Assembly (NCBI GenBank): GCA_003566775.1 | Contig: PXBW01000306.1 | Span: 1,359 to 65,358 of the forward strand | DNA from: a candidate division WS1 bacterium | Lineage (GTDB): Bacteria > Armatimonadota > Zipacnadia > Zipacnadales > UBA5352 | Length of the DNA: 64,000 nt | Direction of reading: 5' to 3' | Part shown: piece after piece, positions 8,208 to 54,583 of the stretch | How positions within the stretch are numbered: the stretch's first letter is position 1 | How the letters are laid out: every line of letters starts with the position of its first letter | Made by a program: the position numbers and the translations under genes | Notes under the pieces: model-generated | Databases searched by the model: none | Told to the model about the DNA's origin: nothing | What the model saw: the letters and a program-made list of their open reading frames with translations, nothing else

Positions 8208-8283
8208 TGATGAGCTGCCAACCACGAGGAGAGGCCTGAAGACTGCCGGCCGTCGTCACTTTCGTTACCGCCATCCTATAGCC

Positions 8284-9084
8284 TCAGGTGTCCATGCTGC
8301 CCGAGCGAATCCCCTCAATGTCCACGGTTATCCACGTAAAGCCGAGTTCACGCAGGCGCTCAGCAATCTTGCTCCTGAGCGGCTCTTCGATCAACTCGCC
8401 GACTCGCTCGCGGGGTACCTCTATTCTTGCAAGTCCCCCATGATCGCGGACTCTCAGCGTGCTAAAGCCCGCCTCGCGCAAGCACTGTTCCGCCGCCTCG
8501 ATCCGCACGAGGCGTTCCTCGGTGAGTTCCTCCCCGTAGGGGATCCTAGTGGCGAGGCATGCCATCGGCGGAAGGTCCCATGTCGGCAGGTTGCGCTCAC
8601 GTGAGAGTTCGCGCACATCAGCCTTGCTGAATTCGGCCTCAGCCAGTGGGGCCCTCAGCCCCAACTCCTCTGCAGCACGCGAACCTGGCCTGTGCGCAGA
8701 GGCATCATCGATCTGTTCGCCATGTGCGACCCACTCGAGCCCCTCCTCGCGGGCGATCTCGAGCAACTGCTCACCCAGAGCGCGCTTGCAGTGATAGCAG
8801 CGATCGCGGGGATTCGCGCGAACGCGCGCATCTTCAAGCTGGACTGATCTGATAACGCGATGGCGGATGCCGCAGCGCCCCGCTATCTCCCGGGCGCGGT
8901 CGATCTCCACCTGCGGGAACAGAGGCCCGTCCGCGGTTACCGCGAGCGCCCTGTCACCAAGCACTTCAGCGGCGACGTCGGCAAGCAGCGAACTGTCAAC
9001 CCCGCCGGATAACGCCACCACGATCCCGCCCATCTCGCTGAGTATCTCGCGAAGCCGTTCAAGCCTATTCTCGAGTTCTGACAT
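8284..9084 (-). CDS. PP-loop ATP pyrophosphatase, LarE/TIGR00268 family (sulfur-transferase-like)
   Basis: SGGVDSS PP-loop and a LarE-like C-terminus are present. ATG at 9084 (MSELENR) was verified in sequence. The 64-codon upstream extension of the ORF is probably spurious. Confidence 0.65.
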   Translation of the reverse strand: MSELENRLERLREILSEMGGIVVALSGGVDSSLLADVAAEVLGDRALAVTADGPLFPQVEIDRAREIAGRCGIRHRVIRSVQLEDARVRANPRDRCYHCKRALGEQLLEIAREEGLEWVAHGEQIDDASAHRPGSRAAEELGLRAPLAEAEFSKADVRELSRERNLPTWDLPPMACLATRIPYGEELTEERLVRIEAAEQCLREAGFSTLRVRDHGGLARIEVPRERVGELIEEPLRSKIAERLRELGFTWITVDIEGIRSGSMDT

Positions 9085-30440: not shown

Positions 30441-31406
30441 ATGACCGGGCGAGGATCTTATGTCAAACTGGTGGTTATTGCGCTGGTGGCGTCCGCCATC
30501 TCCGGATGCGGTGAACGGTATCAGGTCCCCGAGGGCATGACACTGCACGAGGCTGCCAGGCAGGGCGACACACGGGCCATTGAGGCGTTCCTCGACGAGG
30601 GGGCCGACATAAACGAGCGGGGCGCGGGGTACCTGACGCCGCTGCAGGTCGCCGTCGGGGAGGGTTACACCGAGGCCGCGGTGCTGCTGCTGGAGCAGGG
30701 GGCCGACGTCAACGCGCGGGGTGCGTACGACCTCACCCCGCTGCACATCGCCGCCGGGAAAGGCCACAGCAAGGTCTGCGCGCTGCTGCTTGAGCACGGG
30801 GCCGACGTCAACGCGCCTAACGAGGACGGTAATGCGCCTCTGCACGGCGCCGCCATGTTCGGCCATACGGAGACCTGCGCGCTGCTGCTGGAGTGGTGGG
30901 CCGACGTCGACGCGCGGGGCGGGTACGGCGTCACGCCGCTGCACGGCGCCGCCATGGACGGCCAAACCGAGATCGCGGCGCTGCTACTGGAAGGCGGAGC
31001 CGACGTCAACTTGCGGGACGAGGACGGCAATACGCCGCTGCACCTCGCCGCAGCAGCAGGCCACCCCGAGATCGCAGCGCTACTGCTGGACCGGGGCGCC
31101 GACGTCAACGCGCGGGACAAGGGCGTCATGGCGCCTCTGCACTTCGCCGCTTTCAACGGGCACACCGAGATCTGTGTGCTTCTGCTGGAGTGGGGGGCTG
31201 ACATCGACGCGCGGGAGGAGGCCGAATGGACGCCGCTGCACTGGGGCGCCGTGGACGGCCAAACCGAGACCTGCGCGCTGCTTCTTGGGTATGGCGCCAA
31301 CGTCAACGCACAGAACGTGGCCGGCAATACGCCGCTTTACAAGGCTGCCGACAAAGGTCACACCGAGACCGCGGACTTGCTTCGGGAGCACGGCGGCGTG
31401 GAATGA
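30441..31406 (+). CDS. Ankyrin-repeat lipoprotein (about 9 near-identical ANK repeats)
   Basis: Lipobox ISGCGE. Repeated TPLH.AA..GH.E...LLLE.GADVNAR units. Confidence 0.8.
   Translation: MTGRGSYVKLVVIALVASAISGCGERYQVPEGMTLHEAARQGDTRAIEAFLDEGADINERGAGYLTPLQVAVGEGYTEAAVLLLEQGADVNARGAYDLTPLHIAAGKGHSKVCALLLEHGADVNAPNEDGNAPLHGAAMFGHTETCALLLEWWADVDARGGYGVTPLHGAAMDGQTEIAALLLEGGADVNLRDEDGNTPLHLAAAAGHPEIAALLLDRGADVNARDKGVMAPLHFAAFNGHTEICVLLLEWGADIDAREEAEWTPLHWGAVDGQTETCALLLGYGANVNAQNVAGNTPLYKAADKGHTETADLLREHGGVE
30650..31330 (+). repeat. Tandem 99-bp (33-codon) repeats with high nucleotide identity inside the ankyrin gene
   Basis: The string gggccgacgtcaacgcgcgg and following text recurs with a 99-nt period about seven times, with only sparse substitutions. 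Confidence 0.5.
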
Positions 31407-33668: not shown

Positions 33669-34754
33669 TCACGAGTTCTCCTCAATCCACCTGAGCGTGC
33701 GTTCGAGTTCAGTGCGGTCGGGTGCTGAGGTCTGATAGAAGAGCCTGTCGGGGCGCAGGCGCTCGTGGAACTGCGGCAGTTCATCGAGGGTGCAGTACAC
33801 CATCACGCTCTTACCCGCCTCCTGAATCTCGGCCAGCAGATCGAGCCATTCGATCAGCAGTGGAGCGCCCGCGCCCGGGACCCACTGGATGCAGTCGATG
33901 GCCTCGATTGCCATCAGATCGTCCATATGCACGAGAGCTGTCGGGCCATCCCAGTGGAAGATGCACGCGTCCACGTGTTCGGCCTCTGCCTGGAGGTCGG
34001 GCGTCGCAAAGCGGCGGAAGTGCTCGGGGCCGATCAGCGCCGCGAAATCGCACTGTATCGTGTTGCACTTCCCATCGCAATAGGCGCGAATCCACCCGCC
34101 CCCGGTTCCCGTGCGGTCCATCCTGCCATCTTCGTGTAGCGTGTCATAGATGGTGGCGTAAAGCTCGCGCACCTGGTCATTCGCTCGCTCGATCATCTCA
34201 GTCTGTGTATAGAGATCGACGCACAACTCCGTCGCACCGCGCAGGCTCTCCAGCGCATCGAGATTCGAGTGCAGGTCGAGGTGTGAGACCACCCAGTGCT
34301 CCTCCCCCACCTCCGCGAGGCGGCGGATCAGTTCCCGCATTCGTGTCCAGTAACCATTCTCGGCGATCTGCAGGGGCAGAACATCCTCCCAGTGCTCGAC
34401 GAAGGGCACCGCCCAACTCGTGTTGTCCTCCTGCTCGCGCGAGAACTCGATCTCTGCGCCGAGGAAAGCCGCGAAGGTGTCCGGACCGAAGCCGGGCGAG
34501 AACTGGGGCACCGCGTCCCCGCCCCAGTGGATCGAACGCACGTAGGCGTCGGCAGCGGCCACCACCTCGTCGAGCGGATCGAACAGCATCTGTCGGTAGG
34601 TAGGGCGAGGCGCTGGCTCCACTCCCTCAGCCGGGCAGGTGATGACCACCGGCGGGCGGTCGAGCATCTCCCCCGCCCAGAAAGCCCTCCAGCGCTCCGT
34701 GGCTACCGTAAGGTCCGGCTTCAGTGAGAGCCTGTCGGCCGGCGCGTTGCTCAT
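33669..34754 (-). CDS. Hypothetical protein, possibly uroporphyrinogen-decarboxylase (URO-D)-like fold
   Basis: N-terminus TERWRAFWAGEMLDRPPVV resembles the URO-D/MtaA-family start (ReR..l.ge..DR.Pv). ATG at 34754 with a GGAGAGGTGA RBS. Weak assignment. Confidence 0.35.
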   Translation of the reverse strand: MSNAPADRLSLKPDLTVATERWRAFWAGEMLDRPPVVITCPAEGVEPAPRPTYRQMLFDPLDEVVAAADAYVRSIHWGGDAVPQFSPGFGPDTFAAFLGAEIEFSREQEDNTSWAVPFVEHWEDVLPLQIAENGYWTRMRELIRRLAEVGEEHWVVSHLDLHSNLDALESLRGATELCVDLYTQTEMIERANDQVRELYATIYDTLHEDGRMDRTGTGGGWIRAYCDGKCNTIQCDFAALIGPEHFRRFATPDLQAEAEHVDACIFHWDGPTALVHMDDLMAIEAIDCIQWVPGAGAPLLIEWLDLLAEIQEAGKSVMVYCTLDELPQFHERLRPDRLFYQTSAPDRTELERTLRWIEENS

Positions 34755-35067
34755 GGTCGAATCACCTCTCCGATGTGTTACCTCCGTAGGCGAATTCGAC
34801 ATGGCACGTCTCAATGCCTTCAGATCGAGAAAGCAGAGAGTGTGTATTGCAGGAGGTAATTTCGTGTTCCCGTCAAACTACTGATTGAGTCCCGAGAACA
34901 AGCGTCGGCTTGGGGACGTCAGGCACCACTGATGCACCGCAAATCCGCCGAGATGTAGCTCCAGGCAGTGTGGTCGGCGGCGAATTCAGGACAACGCGGG
35001 AGGTATCGTCGTGGATATTGGTACAACTCATGCCGAGCACAGCTTCGGCAAAGGTGGGGATCGCGAG

Positions 35068-36117: not shown

Positions 36118-36591
36118 ATGGATCAACTAAGCGTTGGCGACACTGCGCCGGACTTCGAGCTACCTGTCGGACCCGGAGAGAGCGTCCGCCTCTCGGATAA
36201 GCTCGCACACCACGAGCACGCGGTGATCGCATTCTTTCCAGCGGCGTGGAGTCCGGTGTGCGGCGACGCGGTACTTGTGCTTGAGGCGGTCGCAGATGAA
36301 CTGCGAAGACTGGGAGCGTGTATAGTCGGCATCTGTCCCGATAACTTCTGGTCAACCAGGGCGTGGGCGGAGCACCTGGGCCTCAGCTTTCCGCTCGCCT
36401 CTGACTTTGAGCCGAAAGGGAAGGTTGCACGAAGCTACGGCGTGTTCCATGATGAAGGAATCTGCCAGCCAGCCCAGTTCATCGTTGATGAAGCGCGCAG
36501 GGTGGAGATGGCGCATATTGTGCCCCTCGGCAAGAGTCCTGGTGCGCACATGATTCTGAAGCGACTCGAGGAGTTGAGATCCCGTGGCTGA
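36118..36591 (+). CDS. Peroxiredoxin (AhpC/TSA family, BCP/PrxQ-like)
   Basis: FFPAAWSPVCG peroxidatic-Cys motif. Typical length (157 aa). GGAAGGAGGAGG RBS. Confidence 0.8.
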   Translation: MDQLSVGDTAPDFELPVGPGESVRLSDKLAHHEHAVIAFFPAAWSPVCGDAVLVLEAVADELRRLGACIVGICPDNFWSTRAWAEHLGLSFPLASDFEPKGKVARSYGVFHDEGICQPAQFIVDEARRVEMAHIVPLGKSPGAHMILKRLEELRSRG

Positions 36592-37183
36592 GGCTGAGGT
36601 CGATGTTGATCCCGTCGAGCTTGAAGCGGAGATCACCGACGACGATCACATGCGCGGTCCCCGGGACGCTCCTCTGACCCTCGTCGAGTACGCGGACTAT
36701 CAGTGTGAGGCGTGTATAACGGGCTTTCACGCCGTTGAGAAGCTCATGGAGACGCATGGTGACCGTCTGCTCCTGGTATTCCGGCATTTCCCGCTGATGA
36801 GCTATCATCCGATGGCGATGCCGGGGGCGCTTGCAGCAGATGCAGCGGGCAAACAGGGCCGATTCTGGGAGATGCACGCGAATATATTCGACGCGGACGG
36901 TGAGTTTGACGACGACGATATTGTCCGTTGGGCGCATGAACTCGGGTTGGACGTCGATCAATTCGACGAGGATCGACACAGTGAGGAACTGGAGCAAGAG
37001 ATCCGTCAGGTACGTCTCGACGGTGCACGCTCCGGAGTTAACGGAACTCCGACTTTCTTCCTCAACAACCGGCGCATAGATATCCCGCCGGAGCACGAAT
37101 ACCTGGCCGGGTACGTGGAGCATTTCCTGACTCACATCGGGGATGGCGACTTACGGGGTCAGAGCCAGGCGCGTCCCTCTTAA
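36584..37183 (+). CDS. DsbA-like thioredoxin-fold protein (CxxC = CEAC)
   Basis: LVEYADYQCEACITGFHAV...GTPTFFLNN is DsbA-family. The GTG start overlaps the peroxiredoxin stop by 8 nt. An alternative ATG lies at 36650. Confidence 0.7.
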   Translation: MAEAEVDVDPVELEAEITDDDHMRGPRDAPLTLVEYADYQCEACITGFHAVEKLMETHGDRLLLVFRHFPLMSYHPMAMPGALAADAAGKQGRFWEMHANIFDADGEFDDDDIVRWAHELGLDVDQFDEDRHSEELEQEIRQVRLDGARSGVNGTPTFFLNNRRIDIPPEHEYLAGYVEHFLTHIGDGDLRGQSQARPS

Positions 37184-37387: not shown

Positions 37388-37463
37388 GGGCCCGTAGCTC
37401 AGAGGTTAGAGCAACCGGCTCATAACCGGTTGGTCGCTGGTTCGATCCCAGCCGGGCCCACCA
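37388..37463 (+). tRNA. tRNA-Met (anticodon CAT); elongator-type, could alternatively be tRNA-Ile2 (LAU)
   Basis: Manual cloverleaf: acceptor GGGCCCG/CGGGCCC, D-stem GCTC/GAGC, anticodon stem ACCGG/CCGGT with loop CTCATAA, variable loop TGGTC, T-arm GCTGG-TTCGATC-CCAGC, discriminator A and an encoded CCA. G1:C72 pairs, so not an initiator tRNA. Confidence 0.85.
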
Positions 37464-37541: not shown

Positions 37542-37577
37542 GCGGGGCGGCTGCGTGCCGCCCCGTATGCCTTTTTC
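37542..37577 (+). terminator. Rho-independent terminator after the tRNA
   Basis: GCGGGGCGGC-tgcgt-GCCGCCCCG stem-loop followed by tatgccTTTTT. Confidence 0.55.
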
Positions 37578-37687
37578 GGAAGACTGTGTCAGTATCAGAC
37601 CTTCGCAGTGGCAGGCGCAGCACTCACTGCGGTCGAATGTCACATCTGAGATCGTGTTTCGAACGACAACAGGGCGGAGATGAACCG

Positions 37688-40600
37688 ATGCTTAGCCCAA
37701 TCGCGGATTACGTCAAGGCGCGCAGAAACGAACTTGGACGCCACGTGCTCTTCGTCGGGCACGCGATCCGCACGTCACCCGATGAGATAACAGTCGAGCG
37801 CCTTCTTCACAATATGGCTATCGACTGGGCCCGGGAGCACGAGATTGAACTACCGGAGGAAGACCCGGAAGAGGCCGCAATGCGGCTGATGGCTGAACGG
37901 ATACCGTCTCACCTTGAGCGCTGTCGCCTTCTCCGGGGGCTACTGGAGGAGCTCAGGCCCAGTGAGGCGCATATTCGTCTTGCTCGCATGATCTCCGACG
38001 GGTACTTCCCCGCGATCTTCACGACCGACCCCACGAATCTGCTCCAGCGCGCTCTGAACAGTCAGCACATGGAGCCGGAAAGTGACTACCATCTGCTGGT
38101 TGCCGGCGTCGATGACCCCGAGGAGATCGAGCTTGCCATCTCCGGCTCGACGCGTGTGGTCGTAGTCAAACTGGCCGGATCGATGACTGGTGACTTCCTC
38201 CCGCTCGCTCAGAGCGAAGTCGACGCGGCGATAGACGCCGTCGGCTCGGTGATCGAGCAGGCTTTTGGCACCCTTGCCCTGTTCGTGGCGTATACGGAGC
38301 GTGACCGTGCTCTCATCTCTCATCTGCCGGAGGACGGCGATCGTGCCTTCTGGATCAACCGCATCATCCCGATGGATGACGAGGACCTGTTCCAGGAACT
38401 GAAGATGGAGAGCCCCGACAGTGTTGAATATCACCGCCTGCAGCCGAAGGTGACGCGGATGCTGGAAAAGCGAGCCTCTGCTCGCCATCTTCTCTGCCGT
38501 GAACAGGGAGAGCCTAACGCATTCTTCAGCGGACTTGAGGATCGGGTCAGCCGCCACGACCGCTCCACCGGGAGGATGCGTAAGTCCGGCCCCACCCTCA
38601 GCGTGCTCACGGGAGGCCCCTACCGCTTTCTTGCGCCCTATCGCATGGAGGACGCCGAGCTATTCTATGGTCGAGAACAGGAGACCGAAGATGTCATCGA
38701 GATGATTCGCGAGAATCGCCTCAGTGTGCTCTTCGGAGGAATGGGGCGCGGCAAGACCTCTCTGCTGTGTGCCGGCGTCATGGCACGTATGCTCGACGAG
38801 GCGGAGGAGGCCGACACCGATCACGGAACCTTCTGGTTGCCCGTTTACGTGCGCTGTGGCATGGATCCACTCGAGAACACACGTGAGGCGATCGTGGAGG
38901 CTCTAAGCGAAATCGACATTGAAGACGTCGATCCTGAAGTATCGTTGCCCGAGTTGATAGAAGAGAGCATTGAGCGTTCCAAGCGTCCGATAGTGCTGCT
39001 CATCGATCAGTTCGAAGAATACTTCGTCCGTACAGGAGATCGGCTCCAGCAGCAGTTCGCCGCAGAACTCGCAGACGCGCTGGACAAATGTGACCGGTTG
39101 CGCGTGCTCATCAGTATTCGGGAGGACTACCTCGGTAAGCTCTACGAACTGCACGAACAGTTCCCCACGATTCTGCACAACGTATATCGGCTGCGCAAGC
39201 TCAGCTCGCGCCAGGCCAAGGTTGCGGCCATGAAGCCGGGAGCAAACTTCCATTTGACCGTTGAGGAGGAACTCGTGGACCGCGTCCTCGAAGATCTCTG
39301 CGACGATGATGGATGTGAGCCGACCGAACTTCAAATCGTGATGGATAGACTCTATCAGACGTTGTCCCCGCACCGGCATGTGATGGCTGCCACGGCATAC
39401 GAGCAGCTTGACGGCGCGGACAGGATCCTGCGTAACTATCTCGAACACGCCCTCCAACAGCTTCCGCCCTGGGAAAGGCGTCTCGTCCGGAACATACTCA
39501 AGCAGATGGTCCAATCCTCGGAGTTGAAGGCCATTCGCCCCGTGGAACGTCTTGCTTCAGAGGTCGGTCAATCCGAAGAAACCGTCGAGCGCATTCTCGC
39601 CCGTCTCGAGGATCTACGCCTCGTGCGTCGCGTCGGCAAGCCCGATCAGCATGAGTACGAGGTGGTTCACGAGTACGTGGCGCACAAGATCGATGAGTGG
39701 ATGACCGAGCGTCAGATCGAGGTCAAAGATGTTCAGGACCTGATCACCCGCGAATTGGGCAACTATCAGAAGTTCGGCCTGCGCATGCAGGAGAGTGCGC
39801 TCAGAGTAATCGAGAGCCATCGCAATGAGCTTACGATCTCGCCGGAAGAGATGGCCCTGATTATCCGCAGTGCGGTACATCACGAGGTTGATGTTGGATA
39901 CTGGCTGCGACGCGCCGATGAACTCGAGGATCTGCTCGAGCCCACCCTCAAGGACATGCTTCGTGCGGAAGAGGCGCATGTGCGCCGCTCCGCCCTTCGT
40001 GCACTGGGCCCTCACGTTTCGAGGTCCTATCTGCCCGAACTGGTCGATCTACTTGATGACGAACAGGAGGACGTCCGCACGCAGGCCGAGGAGTATCTGC
40101 GAGGGCTCGATCGCCAACTTGTCCACATGCTTGGACGCGGCAGTAAAGAAGAGAGGCATCTTGCCGCGTACGCTCTGGGAAGGATCGAGAGCCGTCGAGC
40201 GCTGCGACCTCTGACGCAGGCCCTGCGCGACGACGATGACGAGATGCGGGACGAGATCGCTGAGGCCCTCATGGAGATGGACAGCGATTCGACCACCCGC
40301 ATGCTGCTGCGCCGACTGCGCGAGAGTCCCGAAGCCCCGTGGGCGGTGGCATATGCACTCGGACGCGTGGCACAGGATTCCAGCGCGGTGGACGACATCG
40401 CGCAGGCGCGCCGCAACTCGCCACGTTCGGCCCAGATCACTTTCGCTCTGGCGATGGCTCTCGCCCAGCGCCGCGACTTCGAGGAGGCGCTGGAGTTACT
40501 CGATCAGGCGGAGAAGCTCGCGAGCACCGAGACCGGCCGCAAGAGCATAACGGAGATACGCAACGAGGTACTGGAGCAGCAGGAGCGGGCGAGCCGTTTC

Positions 40601-41653
40601 GAGGATTGGACCACATTTCATGGCAATCCGCGCAGAACCGGATACTCGAGCGAACGTGTTACACCACCCCTGCGAGTTCGCTGGAGATTTCAGACACGTG
40701 GTCCCGTAGTTGGCGGGCCAGCGGTCGGCAGAGGCATGGTGTGCGTCGGATCCAGAGACAGCTACGTGTACGCCCTCGATAGCAGTTCGGGCCATCTTCT
40801 CTGGGAGGTCCACACGGAAGACCGCGTTGAATCGACACCCACACTGGCAGGTGACCGCCTCTATCTCACCTCCCGCGATGGACACATCTACTGTCTCGCC
40901 ACCTCCGACGGCAGTGAGCACTGGTCCTACGATACAGGGGCGGCCAGTCGCTCCTCTCCCGCGGTGGCCGATGACGTTGTCTTCGCGGGCAATCAGCGCG
41001 GCAGCCTCATTGCGGTTGACCGAAAGAGCGGCACCCTCCGCTGGCAGGCGACTGCCCGGGATGAGATCTCAGCAGCCCCCACCATCGCTGATGATCTGGT
41101 GATAGTCGGCTCATGGGACGGTACCGTGCACGCATTCTCTCGCGAGGATGGTGAACAGGCCTGGGTGCGCGAGGTGGAGGAGCCGGTAGCAGCCGCAGGG
41201 GCATTCGCCGATGGGATCTACTACGTCGGCACCGATGCCCTCAGTATCCTCGCCCTCGATATCACCACCGGAGAGACAGTCTGGGAGACCGATATTGAGG
41301 ATCGAGTCCGTTGCTGCCCCGCCCTCACCGAAGACCTGGTTGTCTTCGGAGCAATGGATGGCCGCGTGTACGCAGTCGGCCGGGACGAAGGCCAGCTTGT
41401 GTGGAGCTTTGAGACCGAGGACGAGATTCTCGCATCCCCCGCTATCACCAATGACGTCGTCTATGTTGGCTCCAAAGACGGGGCGCTGTACACTCTATCT
41501 GTTGAGGATGGCCGCGAGATATGGCGGTACTCCACCTCTTACGCGGTGTACTCCTCTCCCGCCACCGCCGAGCAGATGGTGATCCTGGGGATGCAGTACT
41601 ACGATGTTGTTGCATTCGTCGGACAGGAGTTCAAACCGGGAGCACTGACATGA
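37688..41653 (+). CDS. Large multidomain protein: SIR2_2-like N-domain, P-loop NTPase (STAND/NACHT-like), HEAT-like repeats and a C-terminal PQQ-type beta-propeller; candidate immune/signalling STAND protein
   Basis: SIR2_2 blocks in order: HVLFVGHAIRTS, AIFTTDPTNLLQRAL, VVVKLAGSMTGDF, LFVAYTERDRALI. NTPase: FYGREQE...VLFGGMGRGKTSLL (Walker A), LLIDQFEE (Walker B), RVLISIRED. HEAT-like: HVRRSALRALG...EDVRTQAEEYL...ALRPLTQALRDDDDEMRDEIAEAL. Eight YxxD/G-xxG-xxxW propeller blades (VYALDSSSGHLLWE, IYCLATSDGSEHWS, LIAVDRKSGTLRWQ, VHAFSREDGEQAW, ILALDITTGETVWE, VYAVGRDEGQLVWS, LYTLSVEDGREIWR). No signal peptide. The start could be at 37586, 37637 or 37688; the last sits just before the SIR2 block. 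Confidence 0.7.
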   Translation: MLSPIADYVKARRNELGRHVLFVGHAIRTSPDEITVERLLHNMAIDWAREHEIELPEEDPEEAAMRLMAERIPSHLERCRLLRGLLEELRPSEAHIRLARMISDGYFPAIFTTDPTNLLQRALNSQHMEPESDYHLLVAGVDDPEEIELAISGSTRVVVVKLAGSMTGDFLPLAQSEVDAAIDAVGSVIEQAFGTLALFVAYTERDRALISHLPEDGDRAFWINRIIPMDDEDLFQELKMESPDSVEYHRLQPKVTRMLEKRASARHLLCREQGEPNAFFSGLEDRVSRHDRSTGRMRKSGPTLSVLTGGPYRFLAPYRMEDAELFYGREQETEDVIEMIRENRLSVLFGGMGRGKTSLLCAGVMARMLDEAEEADTDHGTFWLPVYVRCGMDPLENTREAIVEALSEIDIEDVDPEVSLPELIEESIERSKRPIVLLIDQFEEYFVRTGDRLQQQFAAELADALDKCDRLRVLISIREDYLGKLYELHEQFPTILHNVYRLRKLSSRQAKVAAMKPGANFHLTVEEELVDRVLEDLCDDDGCEPTELQIVMDRLYQTLSPHRHVMAATAYEQLDGADRILRNYLEHALQQLPPWERRLVRNILKQMVQSSELKAIRPVERLASEVGQSEETVERILARLEDLRLVRRVGKPDQHEYEVVHEYVAHKIDEWMTERQIEVKDVQDLITRELGNYQKFGLRMQESALRVIESHRNELTISPEEMALIIRSAVHHEVDVGYWLRRADELEDLLEPTLKDMLRAEEAHVRRSALRALGPHVSRSYLPELVDLLDDEQEDVRTQAEEYLRGLDRQLVHMLGRGSKEERHLAAYALGRIESRRALRPLTQALRDDDDEMRDEIAEALMEMDSDSTTRMLLRRLRESPEAPWAVAYALGRVAQDSSAVDDIAQARRNSPRSAQITFALAMALAQRRDFEEALELLDQAEKLASTETGRKSITEIRNEVLEQQERASRFEDWTTFHGNPRRTGYSSERVTPPLRVRWRFQTRGPVVGGPAVGRGMVCVGSRDSYVYALDSSSGHLLWEVHTEDRVESTPTLAGDRLYLTSRDGHIYCLATSDGSEHWSYDTGAASRSSPAVADDVVFAGNQRGSLIAVDRKSGTLRWQATARDEISAAPTIADDLVIVGSWDGTVHAFSREDGEQAWVREVEEPVAAAGAFADGIYYVGTDALSILALDITTGETVWETDIEDRVRCCPALTEDLVVFGAMDGRVYAVGRDEGQLVWSFETEDEILASPAITNDVVYVGSKDGALYTLSVEDGREIWRYSTSYAVYSSPATAEQMVILGMQYYDVVAFVGQEFKPGALT

Positions 41654-42543
41654 GGCGATTCCTCGTATTGGTGGTCGGCATCGCGACCGTGGCCTCAGCC
41701 GGCTGCGGGACAGTCGATCACATGCGTCGAGACTTCGTGGCCCCGCGCTACATTCAGCAGGCGGAGGCTAAGGTCCATCGCCTGCCGCGCGATCCCGGAG
41801 CGGCGGAGCGGGCGGCGGACCGTGCGCTGCGGCTCATGCCCGATGCACCAGAGCTTCAACTGAGGGCAGCACGCGTGTACGCGTCGGCTCGGGCGTGGGA
41901 GAAGGCCATCCGGCTGTTCGAAGCACAGGCGAACCTGGCCACCCTCGATCAGTTGACCTACGCACTGTGCCTGCTTGAAGCCGAACGGCGGGAACTTGGA
42001 GCGGAGATCTGCCTCCGTGTGATCAACCGGGCACACCGGGACCATCAGCAGGGCAGAATAGGCAGATTGCAGTGGGCACTACTGCTAAACAACGCCGGAT
42101 ACATCCTTGCAGATGCCGACATCGAGGTTGATCGCGCTTATGCGGCGGTCACGGAAGCAGTGGAGGCATTTCCGCTACAGGCCGCGTTCGTTGATAGCCG
42201 CGGCTGGGCCTTATATCGTCAGGGCAAGCTCAACGATGCAGCCTTCTACCTCGAAAGAGCCCGCCGACACGCGGAACGGGAGGATCCGGAAGTGCTGTAT
42301 CACCTCGGAGTCGTTTACGGTCGCCTCGAACGTTATGGAGAGGCCTACGACGTACTTACCAGAGCGCAAGAACTCGATCCGGACTGGGAGCCGATAACCG
42401 AGGAATTGCGGCGCCTGGGACGGATACTTCCTCCTCCGGCTCTCTGTAATCGCCACAGGCGGTCACCGTCAATGCCAATTCTCAGGGCTGCGCGGCAGAT
42501 GGACGGGGCCCTGACCTCTATGATCGGAGAGATTCAGCGATGA
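41650..42543 (+). CDS. TPR-repeat lipoprotein
   Basis: Signal peptide plus lipobox VASAGCG, then TPR-like helical repeats. Its ATG overlaps the stop of the upstream giant gene (ATGA). Confidence 0.55.
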   Translation: MRRFLVLVVGIATVASAGCGTVDHMRRDFVAPRYIQQAEAKVHRLPRDPGAAERAADRALRLMPDAPELQLRAARVYASARAWEKAIRLFEAQANLATLDQLTYALCLLEAERRELGAEICLRVINRAHRDHQQGRIGRLQWALLLNNAGYILADADIEVDRAYAAVTEAVEAFPLQAAFVDSRGWALYRQGKLNDAAFYLERARRHAEREDPEVLYHLGVVYGRLERYGEAYDVLTRAQELDPDWEPITEELRRLGRILPPPALCNRHRRSPSMPILRAARQMDGALTSMIGEIQR

Positions 42544-45045: not shown

Positions 45046-45822
45046 CTACCGTCTTCTCCTCAGCGGCCAGGTCACAACCACCGCCGGAATACCCACCAGC
45101 AGGAGGGCCATTATTCCGAAGCTGAGCACCGAAGAGGCCCATGACATCGCCCAGCCTACATACACGTCGACCGCCGTGCGATAGGGCGCGAAGCGATCCA
45201 ACTCGAAGACCACCAGGATGCCGCCGATAGTCAACGTCGTCGCCACGGCCAATGCGGGCAGACTCGCCTTCAGATCTATGTCACTTGGCGCGAGTTCGAC
45301 GCCAATACTGAGCGCGAGGAGAAGAAACACCCATGTCCTTAGAGCATAATAGTCGAGGCTCAGCAGTAGATCAATCAGCCGCCGCCAGTCCGCGGTGATC
45401 GCAAGCTCTCGCGGGTCCTCCGGCACGCCGAGCGCCCATGAGATCAGCCATAGGGCGAGCGCGCCGGTGAACAGCGGCATGAGCGCCGCAAGGCCGGTCG
45501 CCAGCCATTGGACGGCCCACGGCGCCCATCTTCTCCCGGGCCTGCAGTAGCCACGCCCATTCGGGTCGATGAACGCGGGCACGAGCCTGCTTACTCCGTA
45601 TCCGCCGATGAGATAACCAAGCGCATGGCTCATCTCATGGAGGATGTTGCCCGGAGCACGCAGAATATCGACCACCAGCCTGCGGGCAGTGGATCTCCCC
45701 CACGCGGCCCGCAGCACCCACTCAAAGAGCAGGCGCGAGATAGCGTAGAGAAGAGCTGCCTCGCCCGCAACGAGGATCACGCGGCGTATGAGTTCGAATG
45801 CCGAGGGCATAACGCGACGCAT
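45046..45822 (-). CDS. Putative integral-membrane zinc metalloprotease (HExxH motif HEMSH)
   Basis: At least six TM segments with NILHEMSHALGY between them. Family unassigned; M50/DUF3267-like. Confidence 0.4.
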   Translation of the reverse strand: MRRVMPSAFELIRRVILVAGEAALLYAISRLLFEWVLRAAWGRSTARRLVVDILRAPGNILHEMSHALGYLIGGYGVSRLVPAFIDPNGRGYCRPGRRWAPWAVQWLATGLAALMPLFTGALALWLISWALGVPEDPRELAITADWRRLIDLLLSLDYYALRTWVFLLLALSIGVELAPSDIDLKASLPALAVATTLTIGGILVVFELDRFAPYRTAVDVYVGWAMSWASSVLSFGIMALLLVGIPAVVVTWPLRRRR

Positions 45823-49317: not shown

Positions 49318-50316
49318 TCATTCAGATGCTGCGTCGCCCCGTGAATGCCGCTCCCTCAGCACGATCACTATCAGCGCCAATGCGAAGAGCAACACAGAGG
49401 CCGCCTGTCCAATGGTGAACACCGGCATGATCTGCAATACCTCTGCCGTGGCTTCCCGCCGGAATGCCTCTACCACGTAGCGCAGAACGGAATAGAGCGC
49501 AACGAAACCGAGAAAGCGGTTGAACGGCTTCTTCAGATAGGGTGTCAGCAGGAGCAGGAGAGGCAATACAAAGACCAACGCTCCCGCTGCGGCGTAGAAC
49601 TGCGTCGGATGGACAGAACTCTCGGGCATTCTGCCTCCGACCTGGGGGAATGTCACCGCCCACGGGTGAGTGGAGGGGATTCCGTAGCAGCAACCATTGA
49701 GATAGCATCCCACCCGTGCGACGGCGTAACCCACTGCCAGACCCGGAGCCGCGAGGTCGAAGCAGCGAGCGAAGCTAACCCCGATCAGAGGAGCAGCGAT
49801 GGCGATCGTGAGCAATCCCCCTGCGAGCCCTCCATGCCAGGACATTCCGCCCTGCCAGAGGTCCATGACGGCAGGCACTTCGGCTGCGTAGTCACTCCAG
49901 TTGAGCGCGACGAACCCAAGGCGCCCTCCGAGTATTCCACCCGCGAATCCCAATAGAGCGACCTGAAGCACCTGCAGGCGAGTGAAGTCATAGCGGTCAC
50001 GGTCGAGGTACATACATGTGAGGGCCGCCGCGAACGCGCCGAGCATCATCACCCCGTAGGATCTCACCTGGAGTGGGCCGATTCGGTTCACCAGCAGATA
50101 GACGATAATTGTTGGGATCGCCGCCTGCACCAGTATCTCAACTGCCAGCTTCCATCGTGAGGACCGGCGTCTTTCTTTGCTACGGCGCTCCAGCCAGGTC
50201 CAGACAGCGACAATTGCAAGGAAAACGAAGAATATCAATGGTAGATGAATCGGCCGCCAGGGCCCAAACCTGAGCAGCGTCGGATGCAAAGCGCGCTCAC
50301 ACTCCTCTACTATCAC
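49318..50316 (-). CDS. lgt: Prolipoprotein diacylglyceryl transferase
   Basis: LWQGGMSWHGGLAGGLL and RVGCYLNGCCYG...HPWAVTFPQ match Lgt signature regions (E. coli WEGGMSFHGGLIG; RIGNFINGELWGR...PWAMVFP). Extra N-terminal TM extension. Confidence 0.8.
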   Translation of the reverse strand: MIVEECERALHPTLLRFGPWRPIHLPLIFFVFLAIVAVWTWLERRSKERRRSSRWKLAVEILVQAAIPTIIVYLLVNRIGPLQVRSYGVMMLGAFAAALTCMYLDRDRYDFTRLQVLQVALLGFAGGILGGRLGFVALNWSDYAAEVPAVMDLWQGGMSWHGGLAGGLLTIAIAAPLIGVSFARCFDLAAPGLAVGYAVARVGCYLNGCCYGIPSTHPWAVTFPQVGGRMPESSVHPTQFYAAAGALVFVLPLLLLLTPYLKKPFNRFLGFVALYSVLRYVVEAFRREATAEVLQIMPVFTIGQAASVLLFALALIVIVLRERHSRGDAASE

Positions 50317-50548
50317 TCACAACGGGATCTCGCACAGGATCATTCACACATGAAAGCGAACCCTGCGGCTGGTTGAAGACTTCGCGGATCTGCCTGCGGT
50401 CTGAACGGCCACTGGACTCTTTTCTCACTTGATGCGCTCATGTGAGAGGGCCGTCTTAGCAACGACGGCCCTCGTAGGTAGATCTTCAAACAGACTGTTC
50501 CGACGCGTCGGTCGTTTGGTTTGTGGTGAGTACCGGCATTCTGACAGC

Positions 50549-50800
50549 TCAGTCAACCGCCCTTACGTCACTTACCTCCGGGACCTCCTGCCGCAGCACG
50601 CGTCCTATGCCCATGGTGAGTGTCATCTGCGACATCGGGCAGCCCCTGCATGCGCCCTGAAGACGAACCTCAACCACGTTGTCTTCGGTAATATCCACCA
50701 GCTCAACTCCACCACCATCTGCTTCAAGCGATGGCCGGACCTTCTCCAGCGCCGCCTCGACCTGCTCGCGTAACTCTTCGATATTCCTGTCCTCAGTCAT
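50549..50800 (-). CDS. NifU-like (Nfu) Fe-S cluster scaffold/carrier domain protein
   Basis: ADGGGVELVDI...ACRGCPMSQMTL is the Nfu C-terminal domain signature. Confidence 0.8.
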   Translation of the reverse strand: MTEDRNIEELREQVEAALEKVRPSLEADGGGVELVDITEDNVVEVRLQGACRGCPMSQMTLTMGIGRVLRQEVPEVSDVRAVD

Positions 50801-51656
50801 TGTCAGCCTCCTCGACTATTGTCTCCGTCGCATCGTCGTCCGAATCTATCTCTTGCGAGGTGAGTCCGCTGATTCTCCAGCCTCCGGGCTCCCGCGCGAA
50901 CTCGAAATGATGCATCTCCATCTCCCCGTCGGCATATCCGACAATGACTTCCGCCCAGCCGGTCTCGCCGCCGGCTTTCACATGGCCATCGAGTATTCTG
51001 ATACCGGAAACCGGCCGCTGGCGCTGTCGGCGCTGAATCACCCTGAACGCATCTTCACCCAGTTCGTCTTTGAGTTGCTGCTGCTTCTCCTCGCAGAACA
51101 GATCAAAATAGGCCGGACTGGTGACTTCAGCCTCTTCATCCGGAGGGAGCAGATCGTACCAGCGTTCGATGACCCGCCATATCTTCCCGAGGTGAGCGTC
51201 GGGATGAGGCGGGATCGCCAGAACTGTCTCACGTCCCTCCTGTGGCAGACTGAGCCGCATCTTCCGTCCATCCGACTCGACCCAGACACCGAAGCTCTCC
51301 GCGACGAATCGCAGTGGAACGAATGCCCTGCCGTTGATCAACTGGGGCGCTACGTGGAGCCGATAGTCTGCCTCCACAATCCTTGCATTCGTGCTGCCGA
51401 TCCAGAGCTCAACCTGAGGTGTCGTGGCGGCCTCAGATCGATAGGCACGAATGTGTCCGTCCTCGTAGCTCACCCTCGCGCCTAACCACTCGAAGATCGG
51501 ACGCAGCGGAACCAGCGCTCGCCCTTCCAGCGTCACCGGCTGGACGTCAAACAGAAGCTCTCGCGCTGCATATGCTTCGGACCTCAGCCCGAGCGTCAAC
51601 GCGATTATCAGCACCGCCACGACGCAGCCCCTGAGTCTGTTCATCGTCTTGTTCAC
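50793..51656 (-). CDS. Secreted protein with copper-amine-oxidase N-terminal-like (stalk) domains
   Basis: Signal peptide. Two blocks of type PV..EGR.LVPLR.I.E.LGA.V (Cu_amine_oxidN1-like). Overlaps nfu by 8 nt. Confidence 0.55.
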   Translation of the reverse strand: MNKTMNRLRGCVVAVLIIALTLGLRSEAYAARELLFDVQPVTLEGRALVPLRPIFEWLGARVSYEDGHIRAYRSEAATTPQVELWIGSTNARIVEADYRLHVAPQLINGRAFVPLRFVAESFGVWVESDGRKMRLSLPQEGRETVLAIPPHPDAHLGKIWRVIERWYDLLPPDEEAEVTSPAYFDLFCEEKQQQLKDELGEDAFRVIQRRQRQRPVSGIRILDGHVKAGGETGWAEVIVGYADGEMEMHHFEFAREPGGWRISGLTSQEIDSDDDATETIVEEADND

Positions 51657-51695
51657 TCCCGTAACGCCTTATCCTGTCCCTGCATGGGCCGTGTA

Positions 51696-52667
51696 TCAGA
51701 GTGCGATCTGCGTGGATAGCTCATGCCAACGGTCCCCCTCGCGTTCAGCGAGGAAGTCGATCGTCCCGTGAAAACCGCGCAGGCCGGTAGTGGTTCCGGC
51801 TGCAGTTACACACAGGGCGCCAACAGCATTTGCCATGCGCGCAACGTCTTCGAGGTCCCAGCCCGCCAGTGTCCCAAGTAGAAAGCCCGCCACGAACGCA
51901 TCACCTGATCCGGTACCGTCAACAACTTCGACCTCGTACGCCGGGACACGTATCTCCCGCTCAGCGTTGCGTACGTAGCAGCCCTCTTCGCCGAGTTTGA
52001 TCCCGACGGTCTTCACTCCGTGATCCATCAGTACCTCGGCGGCTTCCTCGGGGGTCTGCCGACCGGTGATCTCCACCGCCTCGGGGAAACTCGGCAGGAA
52101 GATGTCCGTGTGCGGCAGAACCGGTGCAAGTAACTCCATCCAGCGTCCCGTATCGTCCCAGACGACGTCAAGCGCAGTCCTGGTTCCCGCTTCCTGCGCG
52201 GCCTTCATGACACTTGCTGCTGGCTCTCCGTCGAAGCCGGGCATAACCAGGGCGCCCGCGAAATGCAGTATCTGCGCGTCGCCCACAAGCTTCATGTCGA
52301 TGTCCTCAGGCTGCATCGTCGCGTTGGCACCGATACAGTGCAGGAAGGTGCGCTCCCCCGCACCGTCGATCATTATCATCGTCGCGGAGGTGTTGGTCTC
52401 GTCTGTCACCTTTATTCCGCTCGTGTCGATGCCCTCCTCGGCCATCGACTCGCGGATGAAACGTCCGAACCCGTCATTGCCGATCTTTCCAACAATCGCG
52501 GTGTCCACCTCAAGCTTTGCCAGCCCGAGACCGGTGTTGGCAGCACAGCCGCCGATTCCCATTCCCATGTCATCGACGAGCATCAGACGACCGTGTTCAG
52601 GCTGATCATCGATCGGCCGCCCCCAGACATCCGCAACAACGATCCCCACGCACACGACCTGGCTCAT
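51696..52667 (-). CDS. PfkB-family carbohydrate kinase (ribokinase/KDG-kinase-like)
   Basis: N-terminal VVCVGIVVADV and C-terminal DGTGSGDAFVAGFL (the PfkB signature). Confidence 0.8.
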   Translation of the reverse strand: MSQVVCVGIVVADVWGRPIDDQPEHGRLMLVDDMGMGIGGCAANTGLGLAKLEVDTAIVGKIGNDGFGRFIRESMAEEGIDTSGIKVTDETNTSATMIMIDGAGERTFLHCIGANATMQPEDIDMKLVGDAQILHFAGALVMPGFDGEPAASVMKAAQEAGTRTALDVVWDDTGRWMELLAPVLPHTDIFLPSFPEAVEITGRQTPEEAAEVLMDHGVKTVGIKLGEEGCYVRNAEREIRVPAYEVEVVDGTGSGDAFVAGFLLGTLAGWDLEDVARMANAVGALCVTAAGTTTGLRGFHGTIDFLAEREGDRWHELSTQIAL

Positions 52668-52795
52668 ACATTACACCCTCCATCTGTGTACTCTCATATT
52701 GTACTATTCGCCGGATGCAGGGAGCCGACCTTCATATTGGGTCGAAGCAGATCATCCAATCAGGCCGGTCGCCACGTTCGACTCCAGGGGACACT

Positions 52796-53869
52796 TCACG
52801 CGACCGCCATGCGCCTGCTCACATCCACCATGCGGAGAAAGTTCTCCGCCCCGCGCTCGGTGAAGGTACCCGAGGTCGTGCCACCGAGCAGGTACCCATC
52901 CGGACCGGCCGCCTCGATGCACTCCGCCGCAAGCCGCTCGATCTCCTCACCTTCCACCTTCTCAATGACCTCCATGTCATCGAGGTTGCCAAGCAGGCAG
53001 ACGCGGTCGCCGATTCGCTGTTTGCACTCCGCAAGAGTTGTATCACCCCATGGCGGTCCCTCCAGCGGGTCGAGCGAGTCCACACCGATCTCTGCTATCA
53101 TCTCGAGGTAGCGATCCATCGGACCGTGGTTGTGGTAGTGTGCCAGCGCGCCGTTGCGGTGCATCAGGTCAACCAGCGGACGGTCGAAGCGGAGCATCGT
53201 CTTGCGAAAGCCCTCTGGACCCAGTTGTGTGGAGGCAAACTCGCCGCCAATGATCCGAAAGCAGTCAACGCCCTGTCGGCAGCACTCTTCCACCCACCGG
53301 CGACAGCGCTCTGCCGCCACCTCGCAGAGCCGCATGAACACCTCCTGTTCATCTATCCACAGAAGTGAGTAATCCCGCGGCGATAGGAAGCGAGCCGGTA
53401 TCCCACCGGGGTTCGTCATGCCCACGCCCACGAGGCCCTCCTCGCCGATCTCATCCCTCCGCTCGATGAATGGCGTCACGTCCACCTCAGGGGGATCCCA
53501 TGGAATCGCCAGCAGATTCTGCACATCCTCGGCGTTCTTGCAGAAGAACTCCACCTGAGCGGAGGTCTTTTCGGTACTCTGACTACGCGCCACCAGTTCG
53601 CCGGCAGGAGTCTCGATGGCAGAGTAAACCCGTCCATCGTGCTTCTCGCTGCGTGTCATTGCAGCGGCGCCAAGGAACCAGTCACCACCGCCGACACTCG
53701 CGCCGATGAACGGATCGCATTCGCGCAGAAGGCGCCTGCCCATCTCACCGGCCTCAGGCACGCGTCCGAAGCCGTAGGGCGTGACCGGCACTCGATCAGG
53801 CTTTCCGAGTTCCATGGCACAGAGTATGCGTTCTCGCGACGTCATATCTCTATCTTCACCATCTCTCAC
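52796..53869 (-). CDS. Uroporphyrinogen decarboxylase (URO-D) family protein (likely methyltransferase-associated MtaA/CmuA-like rather than heme HemE)
   Basis: MTSRERILCAMELGKPDRVPV N-terminus typical of the URO-D superfamily. No other tetrapyrrole genes nearby. Confidence 0.6.
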   Translation of the reverse strand: MRDGEDRDMTSRERILCAMELGKPDRVPVTPYGFGRVPEAGEMGRRLLRECDPFIGASVGGGDWFLGAAAMTRSEKHDGRVYSAIETPAGELVARSQSTEKTSAQVEFFCKNAEDVQNLLAIPWDPPEVDVTPFIERRDEIGEEGLVGVGMTNPGGIPARFLSPRDYSLLWIDEQEVFMRLCEVAAERCRRWVEECCRQGVDCFRIIGGEFASTQLGPEGFRKTMLRFDRPLVDLMHRNGALAHYHNHGPMDRYLEMIAEIGVDSLDPLEGPPWGDTTLAECKQRIGDRVCLLGNLDDMEVIEKVEGEEIERLAAECIEAAGPDGYLLGGTTSGTFTERGAENFLRMVDVSRRMAVA

Positions 53870-53878
53870 AGGAGGCCT

Positions 53879-54583
53879 TCACCGCTGAGGTGACCAAAGA
53901 CAGTCCGGATCCATTGTGGCCTCAGGTTTGAGCCAGCGCGTGTGTCCGTCGGCAAACGTGTAGTTCGCACCGCCACCGTGTCGGTAGATCGCCACTCGCT
54001 CCTGCCAGCCGGGAGCCCTGCGCACCCCGTGGGTTGCGAAACGTTCCCCGTTAAGCTCACACAGCAGAATGGTGCGAGTGGGATCTTCGATCATTCCCAT
54101 CGTAAGTGATGATCCCATGTATCCACCAACCTGGGCAAGATCAAGATTCATTCCGTAGCCATGGGGCAGGCAGAGCGCCCCGTGCACCTGTCGCGGATGC
54201 TCATCTCCGGGGCACAACACCAGCTTCTCATTCCTGATGTACGGTTGTATCGTGATGTCCCAGCAGATCCCCGCAACCATTGGATGAGGTAGCATTGCGG
54301 GTACGATTCGATCATCGTAGTCGTCACTGTAAAGGCGCATCCCCATTCCAAGGTTACGCATGTTGCTCAGACATGACGTGCTCTGAGCTTTGGCGAGCAC
54401 CACCTCGAAGACGGGGAAGATCATCGCAGCGAGAACAAGGATGATCGCGATGACCACCAGCATCTCCACGAGAGTAAAGCCTGTGCGCGGTTTCCCTCCG
54501 CGGGTCCTAATAGGACCCAACTCACGACGGGCGTCACCCGACAAGGTATCGTTCCCCCGAACGCTTTCAGGCGTCAACGACAT
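53879..54583 (-). CDS. Prepilin-type N-terminal cleavage/methylation domain protein, DUF1559 family
   Basis: GFTLVEMLVVIAIILVLAAMIFPVF and C-terminal NYTFADGHTRWL. The start was chosen at 54583 to avoid overlap with the divergent ABC gene; the ORF extends to 54811. Confidence 0.65.
   Translation of the reverse strand: MSLTPESVRGNDTLSGDARRELGPIRTRGGKPRTGFTLVEMLVVIAIILVLAAMIFPVFEVVLAKAQSTSCLSNMRNLGMGMRLYSDDYDDRIVPAMLPHPMVAGICWDITIQPYIRNEKLVLCPGDEHPRQVHGALCLPHGYGMNLDLAQVGGYMGSSLTMGMIEDPTRTILLCELNGERFATHGVRRAPGWQERVAIYRHGGGANYTFADGHTRWLKPEATMDPDCLWSPQR

Follow-up and report, generated by a model that had tools for sequence, protein, structure and literature searches.

What an NAD+-hydrolysing immune domain does once its catalytic residues have gone is the question raised by a gene for a STAND NTPase in a 64,000-nucleotide stretch of DNA (the window) from a candidate division WS1 bacterium (GenBank assembly GCA_003566775.1, contig PXBW01000306.1, positions 1,359 to 65,358 of the forward strand). 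The N-terminal part of the encoded protein had been described, in a reading made from the letters of the window alone (the sequence-only reading), as a SIR2-like domain with altered catalytic positions. SIR2-STAND fusions are treated by annotation pipelines and defence predictors as NAD+-depleting abortive-infection effectors, and such a domain-level annotation would misstate the mechanism here. The evidence set out below favours, with a probability of roughly 60%, a dead SIR2 domain that is kept as a structural, assembly or adaptor module in a conserved gene of the Armatimonadota, and not an NADase effector.

The open reading frame (ORF) called mechanically occupies window positions 37586..41653 on the + strand and would give 1,355 aa from a GTG codon. 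The start corresponds to the ATG at 37688 in all nine species-level orthologs and in all database relatives and fragments (ML/MI...), and the true product is therefore taken to be 1,321 aa; residues are numbered from the Met encoded at this ATG. In the nine orthologous loci the DNA 5′ of this codon is unconserved apart from a tRNA-Met gene and a hairpin, and on both grounds the longer GTG start at 37586 was rejected. The 34-codon extension that it would add (window 37586-37687; MSVSDLRSGRRSTHCGRMSHLRSCFERQQGGDEP) has no counterpart in any ortholog, and is probably 5′ untranslated DNA. The gene and the domains of its product are as follows.

37688..41653, + strand: whole gene, encoding a probable pseudo-SIR2 domain, an nSTAND1 NTPase, HEAT/TPR-like repeats and a PQQ/BamB-like beta-propeller (ORF, Pfam and ortholog start)

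37688..38575, + strand: SIR2-fold domain, catalytically degenerate, aa 1-296 (AlphaFold2 model, Foldseek, hhalign)

38618..39727, + strand: nSTAND1 NTPase module (PF20703, 182.5 bits against a cut-off of 27.1)

39938..40642, + strand: HEAT/TPR-like helical repeats (HEAT_2, HEAT, HEAT_EZ, HEAT_PBS and TPR matches)

40643..41650, + strand: PQQ/BamB-like beta-propeller (Beta-prop_ACSF4, 204 bits; PQQ_2, 198 bits)

The SIR2 assignment required transitive and structural evidence because Pfam itself gives no match. A Pfam scan of the first ∼300 residues found nothing even at E 10, and the window domain does not reach the gathering cut-off of the Pfam SIR2_2 family (PF13289; 24.5 bits), just below which a same-architecture ortholog, P0015, scores 22.8 bits. 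PADLOC returned a weak match only to the pAgo-associated SIR2 model (Aga_SIR2-PNTD; E 1e-6 to 1e-7, 25-28 bits), searches of the PDB by direct phmmer and by a shallow profile gave noise only, and a word-indexed search found just five fragmentary relatives. When 1.84 billion cluster representatives were searched exhaustively with an HMMER profile, two groups emerged: ∼20 near proteins at E < 1e-30, mostly full length (1,305-1,349 aa) and of the same architecture, and a distant group (E 1e-10 to 1e-3) carrying the textbook motifs GAGAS, TTNFD, KLHGD and GYSxRD, nine of nine tested members of which exceed the SIR2_2 cut-off. When a profile of the clade to which the window protein belongs (18 representatives at 25-60% identity) was aligned by hhalign with a canonical set of 29 sequences, the two matched over 271 columns with a probability of 100% and an E-value of 1.1e-54, and the motifs coincided column for column. 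A mixed profile matched GsSir2 of the SPARSA system in the PDB at E 4e-12, followed by ThsA, KomC and DSR2; the clade-only profile aligned in the same register to three reconstructed PDB segments at a marginal E of 0.02-0.05, which would support the register without being independent proof of it.

Structure prediction points the same way. An AlphaFold2 model built with six fragmentary homologs had a predicted local distance difference test score (pLDDT) of 43 and was discarded for one built from a 36-sequence alignment, which has a pLDDT of 93.6 and a predicted template modelling score (pTM) of 0.90. The best 50 Foldseek matches listed for the latter model in the PDB are SIR2-family proteins, nearly all of them immune NADases, at a probability of 1.0 and template modelling (TM) scores of 0.5-0.6; they include KomC, SeThsA, BcThsA, the SPARSA Sir2, DSR2, SIR2/HerA, EfAvs5 and human FAM118B. 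Each motif comes after a predicted beta-strand, as in SIR2 (E19-23, E109-112, E157-161 and E196-200). By profile comparison and predicted model, then, residues 1-296 are a genuine domain of the Rossmann-like SIR2 fold. The sequence-only reading had held that the four SIR2_2 blocks are present and collinear, and the hhalign and PDB profile alignments, together with the strands of the model, bear this out; it had also placed the domain at 37688-38500, of which the start is right and the end falls short, the domain reaching about residue 296 (38575). The four blocks lie at the following positions.

37757-37771, + strand: Gly-rich NAD loop, degenerate, G24-H-A-I-R28 against GAGxS (clade alignment)

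38021-38035, + strand: TTNxD block, degenerate, T112-T-D114-P-T116 (clade alignment, hhalign)

38168-38182, + strand: KxHGD block, K161-L-A163-G-S165 (clade alignment)

38288-38305, + strand: GYSxRD block, A201-Y-T203-E-R-D206 (clade alignment, hhalign)

In this register the catalytic Asn of active SIR2 NADases is replaced in the window protein by D114, the motif Asp by T116 and the catalytic His by A163. The numbering in the PDB alignment recovers GsSir2 N142/H186, the TTNYD/KMHGD motifs of ThsA and KomC H146, the last in agreement with a deposited PDB entry entitled ‘KomC(H146N)’. The substitutions GHAIR, TTDPT, KLAGS (His to Ala) and AYT that had been picked out by eye are thus in register. 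The same reading had left the Asn as either shifted or replaced: it is replaced, by Asp, and the shift falls away, since N117, a candidate for a displaced catalytic residue, is D in 6/9 orthologs and was rejected. H25, considered for the same part, was rejected as well, being S or Q in several orthologs. The loss of the motif Asp (T116) had been missed.

The same positions are degenerate throughout the family. All nine orthologs read G[HSQ]A[IVL]RTS, [TIAS]DP, K[LC]AGS and [AG][YH]TER[DE], with position 114 acidic in all of the closest ones, and the Asn or the His is found in 0/10 species-level orthologs. Across the clade (n=18), the Asn column (114) holds E5 G5 D3 S3 N1 T1 and the His column (163) G10 L4 A2 M1 Y1, never H or N; the motif Asp is present in 10/18 members, the Gly of GYS is lost in 12/18, and of the Gly-rich loop only the first Gly (G24) is kept, the Ser column (28) being P/R/K/V/L/A/S. 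The canonical relatives have N in 25/29, D in 29/29 and H in 27/29 sequences at the corresponding columns. K161 and G164 are invariant in the clade, and D206 is conserved in the clade and in the canonical relatives alike. The catalytic residues are accordingly not restored in other members (clade His 0/18, Asn 1/18), and a conserved Asn/His pair in a proper alignment, which the sequence-only reading had named as the outcome that would overturn it, did not appear.

How far these losses bear on activity can be judged from the Avs5 protein PaAvs5-1, in which N110A, D112A and N153A each abolish immunity and which naturally carries NG for HG, with NADase activity (PMC12931631). Loss of the His alone would consequently not prove inactivity. 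In the window protein the residues equivalent to N110, D112 and N153 are D, T and A, and none of the features of active SIR2 NADases, GAGxS, TTNxD and HG (or NG), is found in its domain. With Asn, motif Asp, His and Gly-rich loop all replaced, in the ten orthologs and across the clade, the earlier proposal that the catalytic positions are degenerate, that the domain would not be an NADase effector and that the predicted mechanism of the whole protein would change with it appears well founded. The domain is very probably a pseudo-enzyme, its inactivity being inferred from the residues. That it is still an NADase or an ADP-ribosyltransferase, working through non-canonical residues such as D114 in place of Asn, is very improbable: the activity of PaAvs5-1 with NG for HG (PMC12931631) and the acidic residue at 114 in all closest orthologs lend this idea some substance, but three essential positions (Asn, motif Asp and the His/Asn position) have changed together, the window protein has at the last of these the very Ala that abolished protection in the N153A mutant, and no replacement residue is conserved clade-wide at the essential positions, the Gly-rich loop being degenerate too.

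Partly eroded motifs were also seen in several otherwise canonical SIR2-STAND relatives outside the clade, namely KLYGD in P0035, KLLGD in P0039, TTCYD or TVCYD together with GNSGV or GTRGS in P0042/P0060, and TTTFD together with GSGAM in P0036. SIR2 catalytic residues may have been lost repeatedly in the SIR2-STAND subfamily.

The clade itself is monophyletic in 50/50 neighbour-joining bootstraps and is nested inside the canonical SIR2 sequences, which indicates that one old event would account for the catalytic loss in the whole clade. What followed can be traced in the columns that contact NAD (S28, G32, T112, T113, N114, D116, L162, H163 and G201). Their per-column entropy ranks in the 1st-17th percentile in the canonical set and in the 39th-77th in the clade, while the clade is more conserved overall (mean entropy 1.82 vs 2.21), so that the relaxation of constraint is specific to the pocket. 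This looks like decay of the NAD pocket and not its re-use, and most likely the domain neither cleaves nor specifically binds NAD+.

The same columns bear on a further possibility, that the domain no longer hydrolyses NAD+ and yet binds NAD+, ADP-ribose (ADPR) or another nucleotide, as an allosteric sensor regulating the STAND switch. Many pseudo-enzymes keep ligand binding, K161, G164, D165, R205-D206 and G24 are retained, and the domain is under purifying selection. A conserved site should, however, keep a conserved lining, and the sirtuin NAD-contact residues (the Ser of GAGxS, the Thr, Thr, Asn and Asp of TTNxD, the His and the Gly of GYS) are variable in the clade, position 114 being E/G/D/S/N/T and position 28 P/R/K/V/L/A/S. 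Such a sensor, which the sequence-only reading had offered as a non-catalytic NAD+/nucleotide-binding domain, is therefore considered unlikely. The regulatory domain that it had named beside it is the alternative that fits best, given a ratio of nonsynonymous to synonymous substitution (dN/dS) of 0.14, level with that of the NTPase.

This ratio was estimated among ten orthologs and amounts to 0.14 in the SIR2-like domain and to 0.16 in both the NTPase and the HEAT region, while the propeller, at 0.21, is the fastest-evolving domain; with an ortholog dS of ∼1.1, near saturation, the values are approximate. Throughout the clade some 20 residues of the SIR2-like domain show little or no variation, E93, S154, P243, H249 and P253 being conserved specifically there. 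Three of them belong to an insert.

38390..38446, + strand: clade-specific insert of ∼17 aa, aa ∼235-253 (...LKMESPDSVEYHRLQP), with H249 invariant and P243 and P253 nearly invariant (hhalign gap against the canonical relatives, clade-specific conserved columns)

Purifying selection and invariant residues, in the face of pocket decay, imply that the domain is functional, though not through the old active site. The decayed active site is also what would be expected of a relic without function of its own, persisting because the other parts of the protein are required. This is scarcely credible for a domain that has a dN/dS as low as that of the NTPase, with an ortholog amino-acid identity of 78%, and ∼20 invariant or near-invariant residues over a divergence of 25-60% identity, that has kept its length and secondary structure and gives a confident model, and that is deleted in no ortholog. 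The insert suggests another possibility, a new catalytic or ligand site unrelated to NAD+ formed by H249, P243 and P253 together with E93, S154, R262 and R271. Within the clade these residues vary little or not at all, and the canonical relatives lack them or vary at their positions. R262 and R271, however, are conserved in the canonical relatives too, any clustering of the residues in space would be conjectural, and conserved inserts rich in Pro and His are equally typical of protein-protein interfaces; a new site is accordingly judged distinctly improbable. The preferred reading remains a dead SIR2 domain that serves as a structural, assembly or adaptor module; a specific role as scaffold or adaptor is held at somewhat short of even odds.

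The remainder of the protein retains the features of a working switch. Walker A (GGMGRGKTS; K356 at 38753-38755) and Walker B (LLIDQFEE; D440 at 39005-39007) are intact, G350, G355, K356, S358 and D440 are invariant in the clade and the winged-helix His, H661, is nearly so, and the STAND switch should therefore work. The beta-propeller (40643..41650) is presumably the sensor domain. No other effector-type domain was detectable in the 1,321-aa protein in scans that included Pfam and PADLOC, and no second SIR2-like gene was found within the 64-kb window. Public records call the family ‘outer membrane protein assembly factor BamB’ or ‘PQQ-binding-like beta-propeller repeat protein’ (P0008, P0025, P0072-P0076), names that derive from the C-terminal quarter only and leave the SIR2-like and STAND parts, the N-terminal two-thirds, unannotated. 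The STAND protein has no signal peptide, and for such a protein the name BamB is almost certainly wrong.

Whether the gene belongs to a defence locus can be asked of its surroundings. The nine species-level orthologs are full length, 70-74% identical, and come from metagenome-assembled genomes that are all of Armatimonadota, WS1 or ‘Ca. Zipacnadia’ origin; the named members of the clade are likewise all from Armatimonadota or WS1, with the exception of one partial record from Acidobacteriota. The N-terminal domain has been deleted in none of the orthologs. Three conserved elements flank or adjoin the gene in the window.

37388..37463, + strand: tRNA-Met (CAT), predicted by ARAGORN; same position in 9/9 orthologous loci

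37544..37564, + strand: GC-rich hairpin GGGGCGGC-N5-GCCGCCCC followed by T-rich DNA; unique in the window, 0 expected by chance

41650..42543, + strand: TPR protein with signal peptide and lipobox (…VASAGC); conserved partner gene, its ATG overlapping the STAND stop codon (ATGA)

Upstream neighbours in the window are genes for a 2-hydroxyacid dehydrogenase, AhpC/TSA, DsbA and tRNA-Met, and downstream lie genes for the TPR protein, aspartate aminotransferase (AspAT) and isocitrate dehydrogenase (IDH). The order tRNA-Met, hairpin, STAND gene, TPR, AspAT, IDH is kept in 9/9 orthologous loci. The hairpin, which is found 5′ of all nine orthologs (L001-L009) and separates the tRNA from the STAND gene, is probably the terminator of the tRNA, in which case the STAND gene should have a promoter of its own in the following ∼120 nt. 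Orthologous TPR genes stand 3′ of the STAND gene in L001-L010, L014 and L015 (9962-10906 in L010, 9914-10792 in L014), and in L017 the STAND and TPR genes are separated by one that is Rce1-like (TPR at 7639-8430). This neighbour is retained down to 28-44% STAND identity, always among housekeeping genes, and its products are mutually homologous at 27-35% identity to each other. The TPR protein had been considered as a BamD, which would have paired with a BamB-like propeller; this was rejected, as it has generic TPR matches only and no BamD/YfiO match. The settings of five more distant relatives are given by identity to the window protein.

P0008, 44%: followed downstream by the orthologous TPR gene, then AspAT and IDH

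P0015, 36%: between dnaG-rpoD and TPR-AspAT

P0018, 30%: among pyrD, ychF and mreC

P0021, 28%: 3′ of AhpC, ferritin and rubrerythrin genes and 5′ of Rce1-like, TPR and rhomboid genes

P0025, 25%: between dprA and the gene of a secreted PQQ-propeller protein

None of the 15 loci examined has the look of a defence island, the context being housekeeping and syntenic, which argues against a typical defence locus, as far as gene order can tell. The gene would instead belong to the core genes of Armatimonadota/WS1, inherited vertically at a single locus and apparently co-transcribed with that of an exported TPR lipoprotein, and for this reason a domesticated signalling protein is likelier than an abortive-infection gene.

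Several other features of the locus and the window were noted in passing. Genes for a peroxiredoxin (AhpC/TSA) and a DsbA-like protein lie at 36118-37183 (+), just upstream of the STAND gene, and AhpC, ferritin, rubrerythrin and rubredoxin genes are found 5′ of the 28%-identical ortholog (L017, 643-2625). The AhpC/DsbA context is absent upstream of the nine closest orthologs; for this reason a link to oxidative stress was set aside as an explanation, and the redox neighbours may be coincidental. A protein of 321 aa that consists almost wholly of ankyrin repeats, of a kind uncommon in bacteria, is encoded at 30441-31406 (+; Ank_2, 317 bits). Two ORFs on the - strand, 33669-34814 (381 aa) and 45046-45822 (258 aa), have no match in Pfam (E<=1e-5) or NCBIfam (E<=0.01); the second is conserved beside the IDH gene in four orthologous loci, and a URO-D family gene occurs in L014 a few genes 5′ of the STAND gene, roughly where the first sits in the window. 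The G+C content rises to 0.70 at 16001-18000, against ∼0.61 elsewhere, and the GC skew falls to about -0.13 at 50001-54000.

Certain points weigh against a dead SIR2 domain acting as a structural or adaptor module. Non-canonical chemistry may be possible, as PaAvs5-1 replaces the His by Asn and keeps NADase activity. Residues that line the canonical site, K161, G164, D165 (S165 in the window protein) and R205-D206, are still conserved, and this is compatible with some residual ligand binding. The near-saturated dS given above also loosens the estimate of purifying selection. The case that synteny makes against a role in defence is circumstantial, and the TPR neighbour is apparently exported, which makes direct contact with a cytoplasmic dead-SIR2 domain unlikely.

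If the structural or adaptor reading is nonetheless followed, the history and working of the protein might be pictured as follows. The SIR2 domain would descend from the NAD+-hydrolysing effectors of NLR-like STAND immune proteins. One ancestral event would have removed its catalytic Asn and His, its motif Asp and most of its Gly-rich NAD loop, after which the old NAD pocket would have drifted freely while purifying selection preserved the fold, the insert peculiar to the clade and the remainder of the protein. The C-terminal HEAT and beta-propeller repeats would sense a signal, and the NTPase would then exchange nucleotide and oligomerise. The dead-SIR2 domains, clustered by oligomerisation, could become an assembly, autoinhibition or adaptor surface, so that the output would be protein-protein interaction instead of NAD+ depletion. 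It may further be conjectured, with somewhat less confidence than the scaffold or adaptor role itself, that an Avs5-type receptor was domesticated at the base of the Armatimonadota/WS1 clade as a single-copy core gene, its suicide NADase becoming an adaptor without enzymatic activity that passes the signal sensed by the propeller on to a partner, possibly with a link to the envelope via the TPR lipoprotein.

The family shows the SIR2-STAND architecture persisting over a long time with a very probably dead SIR2 domain in a conserved core gene, and would be a clear case, furnished by nature, of a pseudo-enzyme derived from an immune NADase fold. Since sister sequences are active, ancestors could be reconstructed and resurrected, and the question is raised of what a STAND oligomer signals with once its effector is inert. 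In kind this is already known, from pseudo-enzymes and from the non-enzymatic SIR2-like domains beside the STAND NTPases of SAMD9/9L; a literature search of incomplete coverage turned up neither an account of the family nor any bacterial STAND protein with a dead SIR2 at its N terminus.

Among known systems the same fold and the four collinear motif blocks are shared with ThsA, SPARSA SIR2-APAZ, DSR2, KomC and SIR2/HerA, which are the best structural and profile matches. All of these are active NADases with GAGxS, TTNxD and HG, motifs that the window domain lacks, and the domains or genes with which they are partnered (SLOG, APAZ/pAgo, HerA, KomAB) are missing from the window protein and its surroundings: neither a SLOG nor a TIR domain, as would recall Thoeris ThsA, was found in the window protein or its neighbours, nor an APAZ domain or adjacent short pAgo of the SPARSA kind, the neighbours being the AhpC/DsbA pair and the TPR/AspAT pair. 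The central NTPase is a clear member of the nSTAND1 group (PF20703, Walker A/B intact), whose NTPases carry effectors or adaptors at the N terminus and repeats that act as sensors at the C terminus, according to the paper that defined the group and treats its members as conflict systems (Kaur, Burroughs, Iyer, Aravind 2021, eLife; PMC8195603). In the passages of that paper found by term search, the single mention of SIR2 is as effector of another system, and a dead SIR2 on nSTAND1 is not described (PMC8195603). The window family differs from the systems as described there, behaving like a core gene that is passed on vertically.

The nearest canonical sequence relatives of the domain are SIR2-STAND proteins, with NTPases that match Avs2, NACHT or nSTAND3 models, and the resemblance is greatest to Avs5 (AVAST type 5; EfAvs5, PDB 9JAP, and PaAvs5-1). 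An N-terminal SIR2 fold, a STAND NTPase and C-terminal repeats or sensor are common to both, and EfAvs5 is among the Foldseek matches listed for the window domain. The differences lie in the SIR2 domain of Avs5, an NADase effector with essential motif residues, where the window domain has lost Asn, His and motif Asp along with the Gly-rich loop; in the nSTAND1-type NTPase and the HEAT and PQQ-like propeller sensor of the window protein, EfAvs5 and PaAvs5 having other STAND and sensor types; and in the setting, a syntenic core gene among housekeeping genes and not a mobile defence-island gene. No match to the Avs models of PADLOC was obtained with E up to 1; all that appeared was the weak hit to Aga_SIR2-PNTD and a few weak ones to unrelated models. 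The window protein works most like, and shares stock with, Avs5-type SIR2-STAND proteins, yet it lacks their defining catalytic features.

In concept, the nearest precedent is the variant SIR2-like domain that SAMD9/9L and Avs9 carry. In SAMD9/SAMD9L and the bacterial Avs9-like proteins a SIR2-like domain without reported enzymatic activity directly precedes a STAND NTPase that has helical repeats, a likeness of SIR2-like domains that is drawn at superfamily level, and in SAMD9L this domain forms dimer interfaces and has been proposed to be regulatory or scaffolding, not enzymatic (bioRxiv 10.64898/2026.02.01.703102). SAMD9/9L differ in having a separate effector of their own (the AlbA tRNase) and SAM and OB domains; no other effector domain is visible in the window protein. 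The SIR2 domains of ThsA, Avs5 and FAM118 act through oligomers or filaments (PMC12700824; in part from PDB titles), and the TIR domain, an NADase fold that serves as immune effector in bacteria and plants, may be a catalytically inactive scaffold in most animal proteins (PMC12700824). A scaffold or adaptor mechanism is made plausible by these oligomers, by the dimer interfaces of SAMD9L and by the inactive animal TIR scaffolds. TIR has another fold and no homology to SIR2, so that the comparison is one of analogy only, although the transition from enzyme to scaffold is of the same kind as that proposed for the window domain. Should domestication of the receptor be borne out, the window protein would stand as a prokaryotic counterpart to two cases, the passage of TIR from enzyme to scaffold in the immunity of animals and the SIR2-like domain that SAMD9/9L carry.

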